A stretch of 26,671 bases of DNA from a virus (Duplodnaviria > Heunggongvirae > Uroviricota > Caudoviricetes): the IMG/VR virus record IMGVR_UViG_3300021168_000019, positions 1 through 26,671 of that record; one strand, 5' to 3'. Below, piece by piece: positions 1,478 through 11,042 of the stretch. The notes beneath the pieces were generated by a model, which did no database searches, was not told where the DNA came from, and saw only the letters and a program-made list of their open reading frames with translations. A program made the translations under genes and the position numbers. The stretch's first letter is position 1, and each line of letters opens with the position of its first letter.

Positions 1478-2949
1478 ACATTTTTCCACTACACGCAACG
1501 GACTTCTACAAGACCGGCCATCCGTCACAGTACCCAAAGGTGACAGAGTTTATCAATGAGAACTTTACTTGCCGGTCTTCGAAGTTCCTCAACGCTGGAC
1601 CCGGCTACGATGGCAAGGTGGTATTCTTTGGTCTGCAATATGTCCTGAAGAATCTCCTCATCGATACGTGGAATAAGAATTTCTTTGACCTTCCTGAAGA
1701 GGAAGTCATTGCCAAGTACAAGCGTAGGATGGATATGGCTCTAGGGCCGAATGCCGTGGACATGGAGCATGTCAAACAGTTGCACCGTGTTGGGTACCTG
1801 CCTATCGAGATTAAGGCTCTCCCGGAAGGCTCCCGTGTCGATATCCGGGTTCCGCTCTTCACCATGAAGAATACCATCTCAGGCTTTGCGTGGGTGGTCG
1901 GTTATCTGGAGACGGCAATCTCTGCGGAACTCTGGCAGATTATCACATCGGCAACCGTGGCCTATGAATACAGAAAGCTGTTCACAGACTACGCTCTTAT
2001 GACTGGAGCACCTTTGGAATTCGTTCCGTGGCAGGGACACGACTTCAGCGCCCGTGGCATGGTAGGAACAGTCGGTGGGGCCACGAGCGGGATGGGCCAT
2101 CTCACTAGCTTCACTGGTACTGATACGATTCTGGCCTTGGACTTCCTTGAAGAGTATTACCACGGAGCAGACACGTTCCTTGGCGGTAGTGTACCGGCTA
2201 CAGAGCACTCAGTCATGTGCATGGGAACTCAGGACAGTGAGATTGAGACATTCCGGCGCTTGATTGAAGATGTTTATCCCAAAGGAATCGTCAGTATTGT
2301 ATCTGATACGTGGGACTTCTGGGAAGTTATCACTAGCTTTGCTCAGTATTTGAAGCCTCGAATCCTTGCCCGTTATGGGAAGGTGGTATTTCGGCCTGAC
2401 TCCGGGGACCCTGTAAAGATTATCGTAGGTGACCCCGATGCTAGGTTTGGCTCTCCTGCTTATAAAGGAGCAGTTGAATGTCTCTGGGAAATCTTTGGCG
2501 GGACTAGGACTCCGTTTGGGTATAAGGTTCTCGATTCACACGTTGGCCTTATCTACGGAGATAGCATCTCATTGGACCGCGCACAGCGTATCCTTGAAGG
2601 ATTGAAGACTAAGGGATTCGCTTCTAACAACATTGTCTTTGGAATCGGTAGCTACACGTATCAGTACGTTACCCGTGACACTCTGGGGACCGCTATTAAG
2701 GCCACATGGGGACAGGTAAACGGTGAGGCGCGTAATCTGTTTAAGAAGCCCAAGACGGACAACGGCATGAAGAATTCGGCCTGTGGGTTAATCCGAATCG
2801 AATTTGAGAACGGTCACTATGTTCTCTACGACCAACAAACCCTTGAGCAAGAACAGCAGGGCCTCTTGACAACCGTGTTCAAGGATAGTAAGATTGTACT
2901 TGAGCACACAATCGCGGACATTCGCACTAGACTTTTAACGGGCGCGTAA
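1474..2949 (+). CDS. nadV: Nicotinamide phosphoribosyltransferase-like protein; probably Namat of NARP1
   Basis: Motifs TDFYKTGH, HDFSARG, HLTSFTGTDT, VPATEHSVM, VSDTWD, RPDSGDP, IYGDSI, FGIGSYTYQ and TRDT. GTG start at 1474 overlaps the upstream TGA and has an AAGGA SD. Confidence 0.93.
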   Translation: MNIFPLHATDFYKTGHPSQYPKVTEFINENFTCRSSKFLNAGPGYDGKVVFFGLQYVLKNLLIDTWNKNFFDLPEEEVIAKYKRRMDMALGPNAVDMEHVKQLHRVGYLPIEIKALPEGSRVDIRVPLFTMKNTISGFAWVVGYLETAISAELWQIITSATVAYEYRKLFTDYALMTGAPLEFVPWQGHDFSARGMVGTVGGATSGMGHLTSFTGTDTILALDFLEEYYHGADTFLGGSVPATEHSVMCMGTQDSEIETFRRLIEDVYPKGIVSIVSDTWDFWEVITSFAQYLKPRILARYGKVVFRPDSGDPVKIIVGDPDARFGSPAYKGAVECLWEIFGGTRTPFGYKVLDSHVGLIYGDSISLDRAQRILEGLKTKGFASNNIVFGIGSYTYQYVTRDTLGTAIKATWGQVNGEARNLFKKPKTDNGMKNSACGLIRIEFENGHYVLYDQQTLEQEQQGLLTTVFKDSKIVLEHTIADIRTRLLTGA

Positions 2950-3015
2950 CTCAGAAGGAAGAGTCAAGGATTTCTAATCCTTTGGTCGCAGGTTCGAGTC
3001 CTGCCGTGCTCTCCA
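2940..3015 (+). tRNA. trnR: tRNA-Arg(UCU)
   Basis: GGGCGCG TA ACTC AGAAGGAA GAGT C AAGGA TTTCTAA TCCTT TGGTC GCAGG TTCGAGT CCTGC CGTGCTC T CCA: full 76-nt cloverleaf with encoded CCA. Confidence 0.93.
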
Positions 3016-3460
3016 AATTATCATGTTCCCAATGGCAATTGGGACACAAACGTAGAAGATTGAACCTATCGTTGACTACTGAAAGTTTGGTATCAAGTGG
3101 AAAGGTTGAAATAGCCCGGATGTGACAGACTTCAGTATGTTTGTTATATCCGCAACGTTGACAAGGGCAATCTGGAAACGATGCTCTAGCTCTTGTTCTA
3201 ACCAAGGCATAAGCTGAAGACTTGTGCTGGTGTTCGTAAATGGCTTCTTGTAGGGTTATGTCTTTCATTTCAAAGCGTTTAACCCTACATGGTGGACAAT
3301 AGTGATGGCTTTTTGGAATTAGTACGTTACATGCTTTACAGCGCTTAGTTAAGAGTTTAGGTCTAGGCGAACGTTCTCTACCACGGTTAGCACAAAGACG
3401 TGAGCAGAAAGCCGGATTGGTGGTAGTAGTGCCACATGGGCAAACGGTAGTGGGAATCAT
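2951..3460 (-). CDS. HNH endonuclease with N-terminal Cys-rich Zn-binding region
   Basis: CQRCGYNKHTEVCHI...NLLRLCPNCHWEHD HNH core, and CPCG/FCSRLC/CKAC/CPPC at the N-terminus. The last 21 codons are the antisense of tRNA-Arg. Confidence 0.85.
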   Translation of the reverse strand: MIPTTVCPCGTTTTNPAFCSRLCANRGRERSPRPKLLTKRCKACNVLIPKSHHYCPPCRVKRFEMKDITLQEAIYEHQHKSSAYALVRTRARASFPDCPCQRCGYNKHTEVCHIRAISTFPLDTKLSVVNDRFNLLRLCPNCHWEHDNLESTAGLEPATKGLEILDSSF

Positions 3461-3471
3461 AATGTATTTCC

Positions 3472-3500
3472 ATTATACCATAAATTTTGTAGAAAGTCAA
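3472..3500 (-). promoter_or_regulatory. sigma70-type promoter driving the HNH gene
   Basis: Minus strand reads TTGACT(3500-3495)-17 nt-TATAAT(3477-3472) with an extended -10 TG. The ATG at 3460 is 11 nt downstream of the -10 box. Confidence 0.85.
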
Positions 3501-3510
3501 GAAAGGGAAT

Positions 3511-4671
3511 ATGACACAGACAGCAATTACATTCTTTAAGAAGGGCGATGCGTTCTTCCAAGGTGTTGACACTCCTAGCCAACGGTATGAGAAGCTTCCC
3601 GGTGGGATTTATCTCGTAAGCGTGTCAATGGAAACTGGGTTCTTTGTGAGAGAACTCCCTAACTTCGATTTGCCGAAGCGTCTCTACGGAGACATCAAGA
3701 AGCAAGCTATCCGTATCTTGGATACCTTTGCTGACCGTCCAGCTACTACCGGTGTGCTTCTGTCCGGGGAAAAGGGCAGCGGTAAGACTCTTCTGACGAA
3801 GACGATTTGCAGCACTGCGGCTAAACTCGGCATCCCTACGCTGGTCGTAAACAACTCCTTTGGCGGGGATAGCTTCAATACCTTCTTGCAGAGCATTACA
3901 CAGCCTTGCATTCTTCTGTTTGATGAGTTTGAAAAGGTGTACGACGCCGACTCGCAGCAGGGCTTGCTGACACTGTTTGATGGTATCTTTACCACGCAGA
4001 AGCTTATCCTGTTGACTAGCAATGACTACGGCAAGATTAACAGTCACCTTCAGAACCGTCCGGGTCGTATCTATTACAATCTGGAATTCAACGGTTTGGA
4101 TAACGACTTCATTATGGAATACGGCAAGGATAACCTGAAGAACCCGGCGCACGTAAATGGTCTGGGAGTTGTTGCCTCAATGGTCAAGCCGATGAGTTTC
4201 GACATTCTACAGGCAATCGTGGAAGAGTGCAACCGGTACGATGAGTCGCCAGTCAAGACGATGGAGATTCTGAACGTTAAGGAATACTCTAGCTTCGCTG
4301 ATACTTACCTTGTTTCCATCGTGTCCAAGAAGGGCAAGAAGATTAGCCTGAAGGCCGGTGAACCGGATGAAGACGGAGATTTTGAGGATAACTCTGAGGT
4401 TCGTTGCAATCCATTTAAGGCATTCCGGTGCGATTACTACCTTCACGTTCCAGCTACTACCAAGGCCGGGAAACCAAAGAAGGCAACGGCACAGTACGTT
4501 GGTAACATTCTCAAACCGGAACAGTTGACTTCCTTCGATGGAATCCACGGTATCTACAAGTTTGAGACTGAAGACTTGCTGGTTACCCTGACGCGTAAGC
4601 CTCTGGACAGTCAGACGAAGTTTGAGAAGTACGAGCATCTGGCCGTTACGGAGGATAGAAAGGACCTGTAA
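3511..4671 (+). CDS. AAA+ family ATPase
   Basis: Walker A GEKGSGKT, Walker B ILLFDEFEK, sensor region LTSND and Arg-finger region NRPGRI. GAAAGGGA SD. Confidence 0.88.
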   Translation: MTQTAITFFKKGDAFFQGVDTPSQRYEKLPGGIYLVSVSMETGFFVRELPNFDLPKRLYGDIKKQAIRILDTFADRPATTGVLLSGEKGSGKTLLTKTICSTAAKLGIPTLVVNNSFGGDSFNTFLQSITQPCILLFDEFEKVYDADSQQGLLTLFDGIFTTQKLILLTSNDYGKINSHLQNRPGRIYYNLEFNGLDNDFIMEYGKDNLKNPAHVNGLGVVASMVKPMSFDILQAIVEECNRYDESPVKTMEILNVKEYSSFADTYLVSIVSKKGKKISLKAGEPDEDGDFEDNSEVRCNPFKAFRCDYYLHVPATTKAGKPKKATAQYVGNILKPEQLTSFDGIHGIYKFETEDLLVTLTRKPLDSQTKFEKYEHLAVTEDRKDL

Positions 4672-4673
4672 AC

Positions 4674-4710
4674 AAAAAAAAATAGGCTCCCGTTTATAGG
4701 GAGCCTTTTC
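4674..4710. terminator. Bidirectional intrinsic terminator between convergent genes
   Basis: A-run, then AGGCTCCC(4684-4691)-GTTTATA-GGGAGCCT(4699-4706), then TTT. Lies between the + strand ATPase and the - strand HNH gene. Confidence 0.85.
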
Positions 4711-5182
4711 TGTATTCTAATACCGCTTTCATTGCTACTAGCATTTCATCATGGGTGAGTAAATCTCGTTTAATCATATTACAACTGGTACAACACACAA
4801 CACAATTTTCCTTGGAATATCCTAGTGAGTTATCCTTCCTATCCAAAAAGTAGGCCCTAGATGTATACTCTCCTCCTACGGTAGAATACGGAATCCACGG
4901 TATAAGACAGGAGCAGTAACAGCAGTTTGGAACTTTAGTGAAGTCTAAAAACTCTTCATAAGTTATTGTATTACCCAGCTTGCGCCAATCATTCAGAAAG
5001 CATTTATAGATACTTTCATAGGGCCGCTTCTGATGAGAATGGGTCTGACACATGCCGGAGTGAGACTTATTATCATCCCGAATTCTGACTTCAGTGGCGC
5101 ATCCGGGTGCAGCGCACTTGTACACCCGGATAGTTTTACTAGGTTTGCTATTATATTCTACACGAATTAGCGAATCGGACAT
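4694..5182 (-). CDS. HNH-type homing endonuclease-like protein
   Basis: CCYC...LDRKDNSLGYSKENCVVCCTSCNMIK His-Me finger pattern. Start moved to ATG 5182, preceded by GGAGGAG inside the last nrdJ codons. Paralogous to 11331..11888. Confidence 0.8.
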   Translation of the reverse strand: MSDSLIRVEYNSKPSKTIRVYKCAAPGCATEVRIRDDNKSHSGMCQTHSHQKRPYESIYKCFLNDWRKLGNTITYEEFLDFTKVPNCCYCSCLIPWIPYSTVGGEYTSRAYFLDRKDNSLGYSKENCVVCCTSCNMIKRDLLTHDEMLVAMKAVLEYRKGSL

Positions 5183-7035
5183 ACTCCTCCCTCGCATTCC
5201 ATCCCTTCAATCATGCGGCCTTCGCCGATGTCTTCTATTTGGATAGGCTTAATCTTGCTAGATAATTTCTCATATTGCTCACGAGTAATTGCCTCTTTAG
5301 GAGCCTGTTTGAATCCGTGATCCCCGTGACATAGAAAACTAATGGACTTGACAAATTGTAAATTCTGTGCTACCCATTCTTTCAGTTTCGGGATATCTTC
5401 ACGTTTATAATACACCGTTACTGATACCGCCTGATCTGACCAATGTTTCTGCGCCATCTTTAGTACATCCAATTGCTTCCATGTATCCCAATCTTCATCT
5501 GCGACGGGGCTTCCTTCAGGAGCGGCTACGTAGAAGTCTACTACTAAAGTCTGCTGGTCTAACGTACCATCAAATCTTATCACAGGTTCAATGTGATGTC
5601 CAGCGGCTCTCAATTTCGGCACCAACGGGTCGTTAGATGCTACTCGGATGCGCTGGACAATATACCGACTCCATGCCGCATGGATTCCCTCATACCCGTT
5701 ACAGTCTAGAACTTTTGACATCGTACCGGAAGGTTTGACTACCGTAGTTCTCTTGCTCAAAGGCAATCCTAGCTCTTTGGAGTACTTTGCATCCTCATCT
5801 TGAATGGCGGCATAGGCCCGGTCTAGTGTTTCAGGTAAGAACAGCCCAGAAGCTAGACAGCCGGTGATGCCGTTCCCTGTGCGCCTATTACGGGCGATTA
5901 CAGCCTGTGAGAGAGGATGATGATATCTTTCCATAGTCACGCGCTTTGCATAGCGCTGCATGAGCCTAGAGGCGTCAATGAACTCCTGTTCTGACTCCAT
6001 GTTGCACAGGGCCATCTCGGTTAAGTTGCATGGCTCACCGTTCTCAAGAGTCGCTTCTGCGCAAGGGTTGACGCCTATCGCGCTGTCAGGTTTTAGTTCT
6101 CCCATGCGCCCATACTTCTGAATGGCAGTACGGTTTACAATCCCGAATGGCTCTCCTTGCTCATACGTCTTCCAGAATAGAGGGTGGAAGTCATCAGTAT
6201 CATCACAGACGACTGAGTAATTAGCGCAGCTACGATGAGTAGGAATAGGTCCTAAATCCCATCTCTTAGCCCTGAGATAATCTTTATCCCATACATCTCC
6301 AAGAATAATAATAGCAGATCGACGCACGTTGCCTGCTACAACCATCTCTCCTGTAGCCGTTAGAATATCTGCTGCGTCAATGGGTCGAACTGGCTTTCCT
6401 GCTCTTGGTAGAAGAATGGACAGTAAGGTATCAATAAATTTAATCAATGGCAGCGGTCCACTTGCTACTCCTCCAAATCCAACAATCGGCTCTCCGTATC
6501 CTCTTAGGCAAACTGTAGAGTAAGTAAATGACTTACCGGTTTCAAATAAACTCTCTAATACACGTCTAGTAAGTTCGCACCATCCTTCACGAGAATCGGG
6601 CACGATGAAATCAGCATCTTTGGTAGCTTTGTGCGTAATGTATACATCTTTCTTAATCCTAGGAAGTTTACTGGTAAATTGATGCTCAACAGATAACCCT
6701 ACTCCTCCTCCTAGCATTAGTAAATCTTGTGCTATAACAAAATGATTGTAATCTGCTGCCGTTAGAAACCAACAGTTATTTAAAGCTGCTCCACCAAATC
6801 TCTCATGGGCCGGTGCTCCCGAGAACCAATAGCCTCTCCCTGCCGGTCCTGCCTTACGTTCGTTAGCTAGTCTAAGTAGTTCCTTGATTTCGGCTTCTGG
6901 AACATTCTTTCCTTTGACGTTACCCATAATGGCACGTTCTACTGTTTGGTTCCAATTTTCTAACTGCCCATGATCTTTCCGCGCATAAGTTCGGCGGTAC
7001 ACAATACTTGCGAGATTACTGAATTCCTTTGACAT
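5167..7035 (-). CDS. nrdJ: Class II (adenosylcobalamin-dependent) monomeric ribonucleotide reductase
   Basis: Motifs YRRTYAR, PAGR, NNCWF, VVAGNVRRSA, GVNPCAE (thiyl Cys), CNLTE, TTVVKPSGT, and C-terminal redox pair CEGGVCPIR. Start taken at MSKEF (ATG 7035). Confidence 0.92.
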   Translation of the reverse strand: MSKEFSNLASIVYRRTYARKDHGQLENWNQTVERAIMGNVKGKNVPEAEIKELLRLANERKAGPAGRGYWFSGAPAHERFGGAALNNCWFLTAADYNHFVIAQDLLMLGGGVGLSVEHQFTSKLPRIKKDVYITHKATKDADFIVPDSREGWCELTRRVLESLFETGKSFTYSTVCLRGYGEPIVGFGGVASGPLPLIKFIDTLLSILLPRAGKPVRPIDAADILTATGEMVVAGNVRRSAIIILGDVWDKDYLRAKRWDLGPIPTHRSCANYSVVCDDTDDFHPLFWKTYEQGEPFGIVNRTAIQKYGRMGELKPDSAIGVNPCAEATLENGEPCNLTEMALCNMESEQEFIDASRLMQRYAKRVTMERYHHPLSQAVIARNRRTGNGITGCLASGLFLPETLDRAYAAIQDEDAKYSKELGLPLSKRTTVVKPSGTMSKVLDCNGYEGIHAAWSRYIVQRIRVASNDPLVPKLRAAGHHIEPVIRFDGTLDQQTLVVDFYVAAPEGSPVADEDWDTWKQLDVLKMAQKHWSDQAVSVTVYYKREDIPKLKEWVAQNLQFVKSISFLCHGDHGFKQAPKEAITREQYEKLSSKIKPIQIEDIGEGRMIEGMECEGGVCPIR

Positions 7036-7076
7036 TATTTTCCCTTGTAAATGATACAGGCACAAAAAGTGCAATG

Positions 7077-7107
7077 AAAAGGAGGCAAGCCGGTTAGGGC
7101 CTGCCTC
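7077..7107 (-). terminator. Intrinsic terminator between the endolysin gene and nrdJ
   Basis: Minus strand reads GAGGCAGGCC-CTAACC-GGCTTGCCTC (10 bp, one GU) then CTTTT. Confidence 0.8.
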
Positions 7108-7147
7108 TTTAGCTGCTCGTTATTGATACCCACGAGTCAGGGGTAGT

Positions 7148-7567
7148 TTATTTAAAGAAAGTGTGGTGACCGATGGTAGCCGTCACGGGATGCTCGGCGG
7201 GGTTGTTAACAATGTTTCTAAAGAACCAACCGCTTGTGGTGTTCTTGAGGTTGGCATAATAGTGAGCGCCTTTGGTAACGTCCTCGTCACTACCGGCTAG
7301 TACTAGAAGCGCCAGAGCGTGACAGGCTATAAAGATCGCATCGTTGGGACTAGGGACAAGGTTGAACTCTGGATCAGAGGATACGGACATACTGGTAAAT
7401 TGGTTCTTACCATAGATCACATCATGGAGAGTATGAGCGAAGCCGGGGTGTCCTACACGGTTAGTAATGACGTGCATCACTGCGCGACATCCTTCCATGC
7501 CTTCCCCTCTAGCTTCCTTCCAAGTGACAAGAGCAAGGTTATCTACATCTGTTTTATCGAACGTCAT
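7148..7567 (-). CDS. SleB/Hydrolase_2-family cell wall hydrolase (probable endolysin)
   Basis: LALVTWKEARGEG..G..AV.HVITNRV, NQFTS, TKGAHYY and IGHHTFF. The catalytic Glu of the EARGE motif is present. Confidence 0.88.
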   Translation of the reverse strand: MTFDKTDVDNLALVTWKEARGEGMEGCRAVMHVITNRVGHPGFAHTLHDVIYGKNQFTSMSVSSDPEFNLVPSPNDAIFIACHALALLVLAGSDEDVTKGAHYYANLKNTTSGWFFRNIVNNPAEHPVTATIGHHTFFK

Positions 7568-7776
7568 ATCAATCCTCTATATGAGAATGTAATCGCATCT
7601 GCTAGTATATTTGATTCGCCAACTGGCAGAGTTACACTAGCTGTCTCTCCGCAACTACCATCTTCTTTAGCTGGATTCCGAACAGTCACACTAAGATGCC
7701 CATCCTCAAAGTTGATAGATATGTACTCAGGATAGTTAACTCCCGGTGCAGTATATGCAAATAGATTGCGTCTCAT
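7564..7776 (-). CDS. Hypothetical protein (70 aa)
   Basis: AAGGA SD and an ATGA overlap with the hydrolase start. Confidence 0.65.
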   Translation of the reverse strand: MRRNLFAYTAPGVNYPEYISINFEDGHLSVTVRNPAKEDGSCGETASVTLPVGESNILADAITFSYRGLI

Positions 7777-7789
7777 GTGTTCCTTAATT

Positions 7790-7863
7790 TGGCATGGGAC
7801 AGAGGACTTGAACCCCTAAGTACCGGGTTGGAGCCGGTCAGTTTGCCATTAGCTTAGTCCCAT
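7790..7863 (-). tRNA. trnW: tRNA-Trp(CCA)
   Basis: ATGGGAC...ACCGG CTCCAAC CCGGT...AGGGG TTCAAGT CCTCT GTCCCAT G CCA. Confidence 0.9.
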
Positions 7864-7929
7864 GTGTATAGCCGACTGTTAACTTTTTTTGTGTATTTGT
7901 TCCGTGGAACGGAATCGACTAGCTTAAAT

Positions 7930-8005
7930 TGGAGCGCCCAAGGTTACTCGAAAACCTACGCTTTCGCTTACAAGGCGAATGCTCTGCCACTTGAGCTATA
8001 GGCGC
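7930..8005 (-). tRNA. trnT: tRNA-Thr(UGU)
   Basis: GCGCCTA TA GCTC AAGTGGCA GAGC A TTCGC CTTGTAA GCGAA...AGGTT TTCGAGT AACCT TGGGCGC T CCA. Confidence 0.92.
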
Positions 8006-8007
8006 AA

Positions 8008-8114
8008 TCCTCTAATCTTGTCAGCGTTTCTACAGATAGGTCAACTTCTCCCTGTAGAGTACGTAGAGGCACGTTTCATATACTAGCGCCTTGACCCGGC
8101 TACGGTATAGAGGA
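8008..8114 (-). ncRNA. Candidate structured ncRNA (multi-stem with long-range pseudoknot) between tRNA-Cys and tRNA-Thr
   Basis: Stems TCCTCTA/TAGAGGA, CGTAG/CTACG, GGCGC/GTGCC and TCTACAG/CTGTAGA, plus loop-loop GGTCAA/TTGACC. No ORF in the spacer. Family not recognised. Confidence 0.5.
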
Positions 8115-8136
8115 AGAACGTGGACGCACTTCAATT

Positions 8137-8216
8137 TGGACTACCCAAAGGGATTCGAACCCCTGATATATAGGTGGGTTGCAGCCACCCGCGTTGAACC
8201 ACTTCGCCATAGGTAG
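8137..8216 (-). tRNA. trnC: tRNA-Cys(GCA), 8-nt variable loop
   Basis: CTACCTA TG GCG AAGTGGTTCAA CGC G GGTGG CTGCAAC CCACC TATATATC AGGGG TTCGAAT CCCTT TGGGTAG T CCA. U73 discriminator as in Cys tRNAs. Confidence 0.9.
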
Positions 8217-8224
8217 ACAAGTAT

Positions 8225-8275
8225 TGCACCCCATTGCCTACAAACGCCTATTAGTAGGTGCATCTAAGGCGTAGG
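8225..8275 (-). ncRNA. Candidate H-type pseudoknot in the tRNA-Gly 3' trailer
   Basis: ACGCCT(8272-8267)/AGGCGT(8249-8244) interleaved with TGCACC(8262-8257)/GGTGCA(8230-8225). CCTAC/GTAGG can extend either stem. Confidence 0.35.
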
Positions 8276-8280
8276 AAAAC

Positions 8281-8356
8281 TGGAGCGGAATAAGAGAGTT
8301 GCACTCTTACCTAGTGGGTGGAAGCCACGTATGCTGCTATTAAACACTAATCCCGC
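8281..8356 (-). tRNA. trnG: tRNA-Gly(UCC) with non-canonical D- and T-loops
   Basis: GCGGGAT TA GTGT TTAATAGCA GCAT A CGTGG CTTCCAC CCACT AGGT AAGAG TGCAACT CTCTT ATTCCGC T CCA. G1-C72, C2-G71 and U73 fit Gly identity. Confidence 0.85.
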
Positions 8357-8725
8357 TTAACTCCCGTGTATGCCTTTCATATTGCGACGTTCTTCAGGAG
8401 TAGCAAAGTACTCTACTTTCAAATTCTGTTCCTGCATCATGGCGTCTACTCTAGAATCGATGCCGTCAAGTTGGCCCAATCTTCGCATAGTCTCCAGCTT
8501 ATGCCACGCTCGAAACTTATCTGATTCGCAGCATTTACGGAACGCCTCTTGTCTATTCTTATACTGCTCACGTCCGTCTCTATGTTCCCCGACTGCGCCT
8601 GAAGCAGTGTGAATGCATCGTACACCATTTTGTTTAGCGTTTCGATGCTGTCCACCGTTACCTCCGGTACAGAAGGTTTGAAATTCGAAGTCTTTGGCGG
8701 TTAACGAAAATAGTAACTGCTTCAT
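8357..8725 (-). CDS. Stand-alone class I release factor GGQ-domain protein (ArfB/PrfH-like peptidyl-tRNA hydrolase)
   Basis: FCTGGNGGQHRN...GVRCIH.ASG......GREQYKNRQEAF matches the RF-1 domain pattern (GPGGQ.VNK..S.VR..H.PSG......RSQ..N...A). No stop-codon recognition domain. Strong AAGGAGG SD. Confidence 0.88.
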   Translation of the reverse strand: MKQLLFSLTAKDFEFQTFCTGGNGGQHRNAKQNGVRCIHTASGAVGEHRDGREQYKNRQEAFRKCCESDKFRAWHKLETMRRLGQLDGIDSRVDAMMQEQNLKVEYFATPEERRNMKGIHGS

Positions 8726-8834
8726 ACTCCTCCTTACAGACTTTCCTATATATCCTAAAGATCATAGTGAGTGCCATAAGTACTAGCACTAATATAATTG
8801 CGTGATACTGCGGTGCAAGTAAAATCCAATCCAT
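8658..8834 (-). CDS. Small single-pass membrane protein (58 aa)
   Basis: Start moved to ATG 8834 (AAAGGTGAG SD). MDWILLAPQYHAIILVLVLMALTMIFRIYRK has one hydrophobic helix followed by basic residues. Overlaps the RF-like gene by 68 nt. Confidence 0.5.
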   Translation of the reverse strand: MDWILLAPQYHAIILVLVLMALTMIFRIYRKVCKEEYEAVTIFVNRQRLRISNLLYRR

Positions 8835-8849
8835 ACTCACCTTTCTTAC

Positions 8850-8925
8850 TGGCGGGAATAGCGGGATTCGAACCCGCACCTTTCACCTTGACAAGATGGC
8901 ATCATCACCATTAGACCATATCCCC
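8850..8925 (-). tRNA. trnD: tRNA-Asp(GUC)
   Basis: GGGGATA...CCATC TTGTCAA GGTGA...GCGGG TTCGAAT CCCGC TATTCCC G CCA. G73 discriminator. Confidence 0.9.
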
Positions 8926-8930
8926 TAATT

Positions 8931-9005
8931 TGGCACGGGGTCATGGATTCGAACCACGATGAGCAGAGTCAAAGTCTGCCGTCCTAGCCGTTGAACGAAC
9001 CCCGT
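8931..9005 (-). tRNA. trnQ: tRNA-Gln(UUG)
   Basis: ACGGGGT TC GTTC AACGGCTA GGAC G GCAGA CTTTGAC TCTGC TCAT CGTGG TTCGAAT CCATG ACCCCGT G CCA. Confidence 0.9.
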
Positions 9006-9006
9006 G

Positions 9007-9228
9007 TTAAAACTTCATGTGACGTGTGTTCCACAAAATAGTGTAAACTATCTTGCACCTACAGCCGCGTACATTATCCTTACCAGTTCCGAAGCATTGG
9101 TCATTCTTACCCGGTTGGCATCTTTCTCCATCGCAGAACGAATCGTCACAATCTGCTACATGATTGGCCGGGTCATGGTCACACCACGGAGCGCACTCGT
9201 CATGGTCCATTGCGCCTAACTTCCGCAT
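9007..9228 (-). CDS. Small Cys/Asp/His-rich hypothetical protein
   Basis: 73 aa with 8 Cys, filling the gap between the previous ORF and tRNA-Gln. The start could be the second Met. Confidence 0.5.
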   Translation of the reverse strand: MRKLGAMDHDECAPWCDHDPANHVADCDDSFCDGERCQPGKNDQCFGTGKDNVRGCRCKIVYTILWNTRHMKF

Positions 9229-9446
9229 AATTCCTTTTCAATTGTAGCGTCAATTAGTTTCACTAAAATAGCTAACTCTTCAATTGTCAGACAACTATGC
9301 TTTAGCTCAAACCCAAAGGGGCATTTTGTGTGAACAGGTTGCGTGTGATATTTATAAACCATACCTACTTCATCTGCATAACCCGGTCCTGACTCTTTCC
9401 AAATCGAAAAGTTTCCTTGAGAATTCTTATAAGATACTAACGGCAT
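9216..9446 (-). CDS. Hypothetical protein (76 aa)
   Basis: The track start (9470) lies inside tRNA-Gln(CUG). ATG 9446 (MPLVSY) has AAAGGA upstream. Confidence 0.6.
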   Translation of the reverse strand: MPLVSYKNSQGNFSIWKESGPGYADEVGMVYKYHTQPVHTKCPFGFELKHSCLTIEELAILVKLIDATIEKELCGS

Positions 9447-9460
9447 TTCTTTTCCTTTCT

Positions 9461-9534
9461 TGGCACCCACGCGATGAATCGAACATCGGCCTGCTGAGTC
9501 AGAGTCAGCGGTCCTGCCACTAAACGAAATGGGT
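9461..9534 (-). tRNA. trnQ: tRNA-Gln(CUG)
   Basis: ACCCATT TC GTTT AGTGGCA GGAC C GCTGA CTCTGAC TCAGC AGGC CGATG TTCGATT CATCG CGTGGGT G CCA. One mismatch at 7:66. Confidence 0.88.
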
Positions 9535-9535
9535 G

Positions 9536-9721
9536 TTACTTAGGCCGATGAGTGGAATCGTATTCAAAATCTTTAACCTTAGAAGGGTCAAATGCGCCAC
9601 TCTCTACCAATGAGATAGCTCTTGGTAAAAATAAATCCCTAATAAGTTTTAACTGTTCAAGGTTAACAGTCCAAGAGGCGCTAGTAACATCTCCATCGAA
9701 GATTATTTTAAAATCATTCAT
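9536..9721 (-). CDS. Hypothetical protein (61 aa)
   Basis: ATGA overlap with the upstream ORF. TAA lies 1 nt before tRNA-Gln(CUG). Confidence 0.6.
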   Translation of the reverse strand: MNDFKIIFDGDVTSASWTVNLEQLKLIRDLFLPRAISLVESGAFDPSKVKDFEYDSTHRPK

Positions 9722-9882
9722 GCGTTTTCAAACTCCGGTACATTCGGCTTACTCGGCCATGCAAGTGTTGGACCAATCTCCTTCGCCAGCTTGTGATAGT
9801 CGTCATAGTTAGTTGCCAAATCCCGGTAATACTCCCCGAGAATCCTACGCTGTTCAACTCGCGCTGCTCTAGTAGATTCCAT
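9718..9882 (-). CDS. Hypothetical protein (54 aa)
   Basis: Start moved to ATG 9882 (MESTRAAR) because of the AGAAAGGAAAC SD. Confidence 0.6.
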   Translation of the reverse strand: MESTRAARVEQRRILGEYYRDLATNYDDYHKLAKEIGPTLAWPSKPNVPEFENA

Positions 9883-10042
9883 GTTTCCTTTCTTTGCAGT
9901 ATGGACCTTCATGATTATCAGCACAGGGTTGTGAAGCTTCTAGTTCTTCTGCGCTGGCTTTCGATAGCCATTCTTCTGTTTCGCACGCTAGGCAAACTCT
10001 GCGCCGTTCTGCCATTTGTTTGCGCCATTGCATGTAATCCAT
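9869..10042 (-). CDS. Hypothetical protein (57 aa) with CxxC and C/H residues
   Basis: Not in the ORF track. Manual translation MDYMQWRKQMAERRRVCLACETEEWLSKASAEELEASQPCADNHEGPYCKERKHGIY*. AGAAAGGAAAC SD. Confidence 0.6.
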   Translation of the reverse strand: MDYMQWRKQMAERRRVCLACETEEWLSKASAEELEASQPCADNHEGPYCKERKHGIY

Positions 10043-10053
10043 GTTTCCTTTCT
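9878..10053. repeat. 16-nt direct repeat covering the RBS and start of two adjacent small ORFs
   Basis: Minus strand AGAAAGGAAACATGGA at 10053-10038 and 9893-9878. Confidence 0.75.
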
Positions 10054-10102
10054 CGGCTCGGATGTTTTCGCAAGACCCCGATAGTTTTACTTGACACCGA
10101 CT

Positions 10103-10177
10103 TGGTGGGGTATCAGAGATTCGAACTCTGGTTAACGGATTGAAAGTCCACTTTCCTAACCACTGGAAGAATACCCC
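10103..10177 (-). tRNA. trnE: tRNA-Glu(UUC)
   Basis: GGGGTAT TC TTCC AGTGGTTA GGAA A GTGGA CTTTCAA TCCGT TAAC CAGAG TTCGAAT CTCTG ATACCCC A CCA. Confidence 0.88.
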
Positions 10178-10242
10178 ATAACTTAATCGCTCGGTTAGGT
10201 TGCGCTCAATTCAAACCGATAGTTTCTGGAGACACGACATTT

Positions 10243-10317
10243 TGGTGGACAGTGAGAGAATCGAACTCTCAACTTCGGCTTGCAAAGCCACTATTTTCCC
10301 GTTAGAACTAACCGCCC
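10243..10317 (-). tRNA. trnA: tRNA-Ala(UGC)
   Basis: GGGCGGT...GTGGC TTTGCAA GCCGA AGTT GAGAG TTCGATT CTCTC ACTGTCC A CCA. G3:U70 and A73 Ala identity elements are present. Confidence 0.92.
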
Positions 10318-10319
10318 AC

Positions 10320-11042
10320 TTAAAACAAATGTAACAAAGCGCCACTGATAACGCCAGCTACGTATCCAATACCGAAAGCCTTCAGTTTCCCTACACGGGC
10401 CTTAGCCTTCTCAGCGTTCAAATCAATAGTACACTGTTTCTGTGTATCTGTCAACTGCAACTGCAAACCGCCTACAAGAGTCTTGCCCTGATCGATCAGA
10501 CCGTTTGCCTTATCGACATCGGCCTGAAGATTGGACTCCTTTACTTTCTCATCACTCAAGTCTTTTGTCAAGACCGGAACAGATTCCAGTTGGATGACCG
10601 TTGCCACGGCTGCGGATTCTGTAACAGCGTATCCTCCGGCTGACGGCCCAACTCCCTTATCATTTACAAATGTGCTCCAACGAAATGCTAGATCACTTGG
10701 TGCAAGAGTTGAATCTGTCTTTTGCTGTACGGATAGTTGACTGTCACGAGCGCCGATAGCAGTTGCTAGCTTTTGGTTAGCCTCTGCGAACACTGTTAAC
10801 TGTTGCTGATATGATTGTAACGTTTGCTGTGCTTGTGTCAGCGATTCTTGGTTCTTAGCAGCTTGCGCGGCTGTTACAGCGGCAGCTTCAGTTGCTTTGT
10901 GGCCTTCATACGTTGACACAATGCCCAGACCTTTATTAACGGCAAAGAATGAAACCCCAACTAATAGAACCGTAATGATAAGACGTTCATGAACCTTAAG
11001 CCACGATTCCGTAACCTTAAGTTCGTTTGTTGGCTCGTTCAT
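10320..11042 (-). CDS. Membrane-anchored coiled-coil protein, possibly spanin-like
   Basis: N-terminal TM (LIITVLLVGVSFFAV), long Ala/Gln heptad region, and C-terminal hydrophobic segment (AFGIGYVAGVISGALLHLF). Function is inferred only. Confidence 0.6.
   Translation of the reverse strand: MNEPTNELKVTESWLKVHERLIITVLLVGVSFFAVNKGLGIVSTYEGHKATEAAAVTAAQAAKNQESLTQAQQTLQSYQQQLTVFAEANQKLATAIGARDSQLSVQQKTDSTLAPSDLAFRWSTFVNDKGVGPSAGGYAVTESAAVATVIQLESVPVLTKDLSDEKVKESNLQADVDKANGLIDQGKTLVGGLQLQLTDTQKQCTIDLNAEKAKARVGKLKAFGIGYVAGVISGALLHLF

Follow-up and report, generated by a model that had tools for sequence, protein, structure and literature searches.

The window analysed here is the first 26.7 kb (26,671 nucleotides, nt) of the single-contig, 98.6-kb virus record IMGVR_UViG_3300021168_000019, which belongs to an uncultured soil phage related to the Tunturiibacter phages Tunturi_3 and Tunturi_4. 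It carries ten transfer RNA (tRNA) genes and, within their array, a gene encoding a stand-alone release factor (RF) domain of 122 amino acids (aa) with the motif GGQ (8357-8725, minus strand; hereafter the GGQ gene). A megablast comparison of this array with phage records returned no match. An earlier note had read the locus as a bacteriophage counterpart of animal mitochondria, in which excision of tRNAs would cut polycistronic transcripts into messengers and the GGQ protein would free the ribosomes stranded at their ends. Its two basic observations were confirmed by reading the sequence: the GGQ gene does lie inside the array, between tRNA-Asp and tRNA-Gly, and all five junctions between a coding sequence (CDS) and a tRNA in the window are flush, with exactly the gaps that the note gives, the remaining five tRNAs coming after another tRNA.

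On the minus strand, from upstream to downstream, a gene for a conserved 240-aa protein (10320-11042), with homologs in the related loci L007, L008 and L009, stops 2 nt ahead of tRNA-Ala(UGC) (10243-10317), and in L007 tRNA-Ala begins 1 nt after the homologous gene. Following tRNA-Glu(UUC) (10103-10177), an open reading frame (ORF) of 61 aa (9536-9721; coding score 8.4; no homolog among the relatives compared) stops 1 nt ahead of tRNA-Gln(CUG) (9461-9534). A 76-aa ORF (9216-9446) starts 14 nt past the 3' end of that tRNA, with a Shine-Dalgarno (SD) sequence between them, and a Cys-rich ORF of 73 aa (9007-9228) then stops 1 nt ahead of tRNA-Gln(UUG) (8931-9005); its L007 homolog, 67% identical, is also followed by tRNA-Gln(UUG). 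Beyond tRNA-Asp(GUC) (8850-8925) comes the GGQ gene, whose TAA (8359-8357) is directly followed by the first base, 8356, of tRNA-Gly(UCC) (8284-8356), leaving a gap of 0 nt. The array ends with tRNA-Cys(GCA) (8137-8216), tRNA-Thr(UGU) (7930-8005) and tRNA-Trp(CCA) (7790-7863), 13 nt past which the next ORF (7564-7776) begins. The fifth junction is on the plus strand, where nadV (nicotinamide phosphoribosyltransferase, 1456-2949; Pfam NAPRTase, 4e-34, and NAMPT_N) and tRNA-Arg(UCU) (2940-3015; 61 bits) overlap by 10 nt, from 2940, the TAA of nadV at 2947-2949 being formed by U8-A9-A10 of the tRNA.

Nine of the ten tRNAs, including all those named above except tRNA-Gly(UCC), were called by both ARAGORN and Rfam. 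The exception scores 27.2 bits in Rfam, under the gathering score of 29; it is orthologous to a bona fide tRNA-Gly(UCC) at the same position in L007 and L008 (47 bits), and its T-stem substitutions are compensated while its T-loop is altered (UGCAACU). This tRNA and its orthologs do not have the usual G18-G19 D-loop and T-loop consensus. Because U8-A9-R10, conserved in tRNAs, spell TAA or TAG, an ORF that enters a tRNA in that frame stops there; this accounts for the recurrence of a 10-nt overlap, seen for nadV in the window and in L007 and for the GGQ gene of L012.

The whole genome encodes 22 tRNAs detected by ARAGORN, the variant tRNA-Gly and one permuted transfer-messenger RNA (tmRNA), together with about 143 genes called with a simple codon-bias model. 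The 13 CDS-to-tRNA/tmRNA gaps measure -22, -10, -1, 0, 1, 1, 2, 3, 4, 5, 7, 9 and 180 nt, so that 12 of the 13 lie between -22 and +9 nt. Same-strand CDS-to-CDS gaps are just as short (119 gaps; median 8 nt; 66% at or below 10 nt), and no difference was found between the two classes (Mann-Whitney p=0.30; Fisher test on gaps at or below 10 nt, p=0.06). The tRNAs thus occupy the places of spacers, and their flush packing corresponds to the normal density of this genome. On the other side of the tRNAs, the gap to the next CDS is 9-15 nt in 7 of 12 cases, just enough for an SD sequence. The use of TAA at all five abutting stop codons was considered as a possible signal and set aside as not significant, TAA making up 56% of the stops genome-wide. 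Since a tRNA or tmRNA follows just 13 of the ~143 genes, most junctions being between two CDSs, excision of tRNAs cannot be a general means of cutting the polycistrons of this phage, contrary to what had been proposed.

Flush packing is kept in the syntenic relatives L007-L009: taken together with the present genome, 20 of 23 junctions are at or below 12 nt, and the 10-nt overlap of nadV with tRNA-Arg recurs in L007, the corresponding junction of L009 being a 12-nt gap. Loose junctions are also found in loci that possess the GGQ gene, with none of two tight in L010 and two of seven in L013. Conversely, by a test that the earlier note had itself set, the idea that short gaps are coupled to the factor fails on phages T5 and FelixO1, which are equally flush and have no PF00472 match in six frames. 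Their annotated CDS-to-tRNA gaps are -24, -23, -14, -6, 0, 4, 5, 9, 10, 15, 20 and 189 nt in T5, and -7, 1, 8, 87, 99 and 165 nt in FelixO1. In both tRNA regions, tRNAs are interleaved with small ORFs and HNH genes and have flush or overlapping 5' ends, as here, whereas no RF-1 domain gene is present and no tmRNA is annotated in the stretches viewed. The genomes compared form a small and phylogenetically non-independent sample, giving an indication rather than a survey, namely that the tightness of junctions follows lineage and overall density and not the presence of the factor.

No terminator-like site was found on the minus strand from 13000 down to a strong hairpin at 7107-7082 (minus strand; 10 bp, 7 GC pairs, T tract), the first downstream of the array, for which reason the array looks co-transcribed; promoter-like matches on this strand did not rise above shuffle level. 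In Escherichia coli, RNase P is an established processing enzyme of polycistronic tRNA transcripts (PMC7049720, PMC2190699). From a co-transcribed array, RNase P cleavage at tRNA +1 would indeed yield upstream RNAs that end at their stop codon or have lost it, and this part of the earlier argument stands, the action of RNase P here being an expectation. Metatranscriptome contigs from three soil libraries bridge the GGQ/tRNA-Gly junction (8260-8730 and 8187-8530), and others bridge the junction of ORF 9007-9228 with tRNA-Gln (8929-9105 and 8853-9078). The metatranscriptome runs examined (X5, X6, X9 and X10) consist of contigs at a depth of 2-10, in which uncovered stretches mean nothing, and the bridging contigs, which carry no information on RNA ends, strand or level, may be unprocessed precursors or carried-over DNA.

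The GGQ protein matches PF00472 (42 bits for a cut-off of 35; 1e-10) and, over residues 2-105, phrog_3122, "RF-1 domain peptide chain release factor" (1e-22). These matches place it in a large and already catalogued phage family. Its motif is intact (G24 G25 Q26); all 25 close relatives examined keep it unchanged, and it occurs in 47 of 50 diverse ones. A sequence search of the PDB returned matches to domain 3 of RF1, RF2, mtRF1 and PrfH only, and the top Foldseek matches of its AF2/AlphaFold model (predicted local distance difference test, pLDDT, 83) are domain 3 of RF2, RF1 and mtRF1. Neither sequence nor fold aligns outside this domain, domain 1 and the codon-recognition domains 2/4 (PxT or SPF) of class I RFs being absent. 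Three cysteines (Cys19, Cys37 and Cys65), invariant in the 25 close-subfamily sequences, were considered as a metal site and rejected, as they are not conserved in the broad family.

The protein resembles ArfB (YaeJ) and ICT1 in being a GGQ domain that stands alone without codon-recognition domains, yet it differs from them in several respects. No ArfB or ICT1 chain occurs among the PDB sequence matches or the top 50 fold matches. The GGQ domain of ArfB/ICT1 bears an extra alpha-helix insertion (PMC3985003), whereas residues 7-64 of the phage protein align without gaps to domain 3 of RF1/mtRF1 and show no such helix. ArfB also relies on a linker and on a basic helix that sits in the messenger RNA (mRNA) channel when this is empty, and mutations in this tail, whose residues in YaeJ include R118, L119, K122, K129 and R132, abolish both binding and hydrolysis (PMC3950681). 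In the phage protein the conserved core ends at residue 106, and the 16 non-conserved residues beyond it have a net charge of +1; past the core, the median length is 6 residues for close relatives and 13 for the family at large, with a net charge of about -1 to 0, so that no linker with a basic helical tail is seen either in the window protein or in the tail statistics of its family. As predicted from its sequence, the GGQ protein is thus unable to sense an empty mRNA channel in the ArfB/ICT1 manner; the absence of the basic tail rules out the type of non-stop rescue that formed the core of the earlier proposal. Among other GGQ-only systems, mtRF-R (C12orf65), which has a GGQ domain without insertion, acts on split large subunits with its partner MTRES1; its fold matches to the phage protein are weak (2rsm and 7a5h, E about 0.02), and no partner of the phage protein was identified. 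The PrfH-RtcB2 module, in which PrfH keeps a remnant of domains 2/4 and is encoded next to an RtcB ligase, does not apply, PrfH matching in the GGQ domain only (E 2e-4) and the phage genome having no RtcB.

With tblastn, the family was found in 220 phage records, the best being Tunturi_4 (70%) and Tunturi_3 (68%), followed by some 205 mycobacteriophages at about 40%. In protein databases, 493 close clusters are found, and 822 when clustering is at 50% identity; their length is mostly 105-130 aa. Members such as Tunturi_4 gp53 and mycobacteriophage Colt gp201 share its length class, its single domain and the intact motif; in the window copy the non-conserved C-terminus (the 16 residues mentioned above) is a little longer, and nothing essential differs. 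The GGQ gene does keep company with tRNA arrays and with tmRNA genes. Its 3' end abuts or enters a tRNA or tmRNA on the same strand in 12 of the roughly 35 contexts examined, and the identity of the abutting tRNA varies (Gly, Trp, Gln, Ser, Pro and Ile). In the clade of the window, the gap to this tRNA is 0 nt here and in L007 (both Gly), -17 nt in L008 (Gly), -15 nt in L009 (Trp), +1 nt in L046 (Gln) and +2 nt in L047 (Gly-GCC). Elsewhere, no tRNA is found at less than 3 kb from the GGQ gene in about 10 of the 22 distinct IMG/VR loci, Tunturi_3 has three tRNAs only, each more than 4 kb from it, and CDSs follow it in Tunturi_3, L010, L011, Colt and Nanosmite. Four contigs with non-abutting GGQ genes, searched whole, contain 1-21 tRNAs elsewhere and, in one case, a tmRNA.

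The phage encodes its own permuted two-piece tmRNA (genome 56015-56258; 74 bits), 47 kb from the GGQ gene, as well as an Rnl1-type RNA ligase; SmpB, RtcB and PTH2 were found nowhere in its genome. In Tunturi_4 (PP885687; L001:4344-4753), a permuted two-piece tmRNA (RF04321, 79 bits) starts 4 nt after the stop of the GGQ homolog. It is unannotated in the record, which has no tRNA, and it may be the single "unknown" tRNA reported for Tunturi_4. The distance between tmRNA and GGQ gene is 0.8 kb in L013 and 2.6 kb in L010. The tags of the relatives' tmRNAs, as read by ARAGORN, end in LAA or VAA. The earlier note had envisaged that the phage factor releases chains without SsrA-tagged degradation; since the phage has its own tmRNA and the tags of its relatives have such endings, it adds trans-translation capacity rather than avoiding tagging. 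A comparable association is known from the tRNA array units of Mycobacterium genomes, plasmids and phages (Morgado and Vicente 2018, PMC5966550), which also comprise an RF-1 domain gene, a tmRNA and HNH genes, and whose RF-1 domain genes have already been tentatively tied to ribosome rescue (PMC5966550); here, by contrast, the carrier is an Acidobacteriota-type soil phage and the tmRNA lies far from the GGQ gene. A gene for a DUF6915 protein (Pfam, 2e-39; L004:9867-10253, genome 56538-56924) is found 108 nt after the phage tmRNA. DUF6915 was considered as a partner of the GGQ protein and rejected: there is a faint match beside the GGQ gene of L012, and tblastn found no homolog in the other GGQ loci.

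The closest IMG/VR relatives of the window protein, L046 and L047 (91-93% identity over the N-terminal half), have a split GGQ gene. Frame 0 ends in Y-L-stop within TAT CTT TAA C, and skipping one T brings back N-K-R-E-A-F, as in the rest of the family. Nine clusters of N-terminal fragments of 56-60 aa all end in GR(E/D)Q(Y/H)L, and the pattern YAT CTT TAA C AAR CG is common to five distinct loci (L046:1743-2067, L047:2184-2511, L087:3001-3331, L088:3001-3346 and L089:3001-3358), in each of which the +1 frame is open to the normal C-terminus; both halves are conserved across these loci, the C-terminal ones being just ~55-70% identical. Between L046 and L047, the codons upstream of the site differ by 24 synonymous-only and 6 non-synonymous changes, and those downstream, read in the +1 frame, by 15 and 16 respectively, the other frames being full of stops. 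Because of the nine fragment clusters, the open +1 frame of the five loci and this pattern of codon differences, the split in the L046/L047 lineage is not attributable to a sequencing or other error, and a full-length GGQ protein would need a +1 shift at CUU UAA C. A scan of IMG/VR with the pattern of the site returned 39 stretches, of which only L046 and L047 (= L070) fall in GGQ genes; the others were discarded as chance matches outside them. The GGQ gene of the window itself is in frame.

This arrangement recalls the autoregulatory +1 frameshift of prfB, the gene of RF2, at CUU UGA C, with the same slippery pattern and a family sequence continuing in the +1 frame. It differs in that the stop is UAA, read by both RF1 and RF2, in that the site falls at codon 56-60, within domain 3, instead of near the N-terminus, and in that no clear SD-like stimulator is seen. 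Such a site would tie the amount of full-length GGQ protein to the speed at which UAA is handled, which fits an auxiliary role in termination or rescue, and would provide a feedback route unlike the one envisaged in the earlier note. A different interruption is seen in L044:3001-3365 (same in L045), where the His codon coming after GGQ is followed by a TAG and by 20 inserted nt that contain a GGTC-GGGA-GACC hairpin. Reading resumes at CAC AGA AAC (H-R-N), with matching take-off and landing His codons; this could be a short bypass-like element of the gene-60 type or, alternatively, a broken gene.

Taken together, these results make it probable that the flush junctions reflect the ordinary compaction of a co-transcribed tRNA-mRNA operon lying beside a known kind of phage translation-support set, and not a device coupled to the GGQ protein. 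Genes for tRNAs would replace intergenic spacers, their 5' ends falling 0-9 nt past the upstream stop or a few nt inside it and the SD sequence of the next gene coming 9-15 nt after their 3' end, and such packing would be a general feature of this genome, shared with other tRNA-rich phages. Cleavage by host RNase P at tRNA +1 would leave upstream RNAs that end at or before the stop codon, and such stop-terminal or stop-less RNAs may be a by-product that any host rescue system could manage. The GGQ gene, the 22-23 tRNAs, the two-piece tmRNA and the Rnl1 ligase would together constitute the support set, in which the GGQ protein would most likely hydrolyse peptidyl-tRNA, independently of the codon, on ribosomes that have paused or stalled; the route by which it reaches them, from its predicted structure, cannot be the ArfB mode.

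Several points weigh against this interpretation. Three factor-negative genomes (T5, FelixO1 and Tunturi_5) were compared, and one of them, Tunturi_5, is looser in spite of its ~40 tRNAs and its lack of PF00472, with gaps at or below 10 nt in 3 of 11 cases. Every GGQ gene of the window's clade runs up to or into a tRNA on its own strand, which could mean more than packing, and abutment is found beyond that clade in L012 (-10, Pro), L028 (+6), L034 (-1), L087 (+2) and L088 (0). As for the proposed activity, the Gln of GGQ is missing in 3 of 50 diverse family members, and a bare domain 3 may bind ribosomes poorly by itself.

The same gene content could also be read as a counter-defence kit, in which tRNAs, RNA ligase(s), tmRNA and the GGQ factor would serve mainly to sustain translation while host anticodon nucleases or other RNA-cutting defences use up tRNAs and strand ribosomes, the latter being freed by the GGQ factor. 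We regard this as unlikely, while noting that 22-23 tRNAs, a tmRNA, an Rnl1 ligase and the GGQ gene do occur in one genome, that a factor without a tail would not require an empty mRNA channel, and that tRNA array units have been described as putative anti-defence systems (PMC12803027). However, no defence system or target was identified here, and RtcB, PTH2 and SmpB are missing from the genome. The co-occurrence of these genes equally fits plain support of codon usage, and the counter-defence explanation overlaps with that of a compact translation-support operon without excluding it.

The system proposed in the earlier note, with tRNA excision punctuating the polycistrons, a co-adapted GGQ rescue factor, and an ArfA-like feedback provided by the end of its own mRNA at tRNA +1, appears quite improbable. 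In its favour, flush junctions are conserved in the clade, abutment of the GGQ gene recurs in about a third of the contexts examined with changing tRNA identity, and in L008, L009 and L012 the GGQ gene stops inside the tRNA, so that processing would make its mRNA stop-less. There is also a precedent in ArfA, a rescue factor controlled through its own message: RNase III cleaves this mRNA, and the protein is produced only under limiting trans-translation (PMC3985003). Against it stand the equally flush junctions of T5 and FelixO1, the small share of genes that precede a tRNA or tmRNA, the many IMG/VR loci with no tRNA near the GGQ gene, the CDSs that follow this gene in five other phages or loci, the lack of an empty-channel sensor in the protein, and a phage-borne tmRNA where avoidance of tagging was expected. 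The likeness to animal mitochondria, where punctuation goes with ICT1 and mtRF-R, lies in the 0-2 nt abutment of tRNAs and CDSs and in GGQ-only factors, whereas in the phage fewer than 10% of the genes precede a tRNA, every stop codon is complete in the DNA, and the factor has no ICT1 tail. This is far from the mitochondrial situation, where most coding regions have tRNAs at their borders and excision of these yields the mature mRNAs. In the literature searched, no paper applied the punctuation model to phages.

A narrower version restricted to this clade seems very unlikely. RNase P excision of flush or overlapping tRNAs would make upstream cistrons, including that of the GGQ gene, stop-terminal or stop-less, and the tmRNA and the tail-less GGQ factor would be adapted to that load, with feedback operating through the tRNA-defined 3' end here, in an ArfA-like way, and through the CUU UAA C +1 frameshift in the sister genes. 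It is for this clade only, and with a low probability, that feedback via the GGQ gene's own message survives. Weakest of all, and most improbable, is a regulator or decoy that is no hydrolase in vivo and could, for example, occupy the A site or titrate the GGQ methyltransferase, altering termination, read-through or frameshifting of host or phage genes: a bare domain 3 without evident means of selective ribosome binding and the replacement of the catalytic Gln in a few family members would suit it, but the near-invariance of GGQ and of the surrounding loop in close and broad family alike is what catalysis would predict.

Around the array, an HNH endonuclease ORF (2951-3460, minus strand; Pfam HNH_2, 2e-5) overlaps tRNA-Arg on the opposite strand by its 3'-terminal 65 nt. 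No full homolog was found at the corresponding site in L007 or L009, which is why this ORF is probably a free-standing homing endonuclease inserted beside tRNA-Arg. A small hydrophobic ORF of 58 aa (8658-8834, minus strand) shares 68 nt with the beginning of the GGQ gene, read in a different frame; in L007, its conservation is limited to the first 32 residues, and the ORF there ends ahead of the GGQ gene. The spacers between consecutive tRNAs (7864-7929, 8006-8136, 8217-8283 and 10178-10242, minus strand) are long for this genome (65-131 nt) and could house further small RNAs, of the kind present in the tRNA region of T5; a search with Rfam detected nothing in these spacers.

The system first envisaged, if true, would have given bacterial viruses an equivalent of the mRNA punctuation of mitochondria, complete with its own rescue factor, whereas the evidence points to ordinary compaction and to a known phage gene family. 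What is new here is the prfB-like +1 frameshift at CUU UAA C that, as read from the genes, gates the GGQ protein in a sister lineage. The family itself is of interest: this very common stand-alone release factor domain shows no evident means of selecting ribosomes, it sits beside phage tmRNA genes and tRNA arrays, and its synthesis, in one lineage, would depend on a frameshift at a stop codon. The GGQ protein could reveal a mode of rescue or termination unlike those of ArfA, ArfB and tmRNA.

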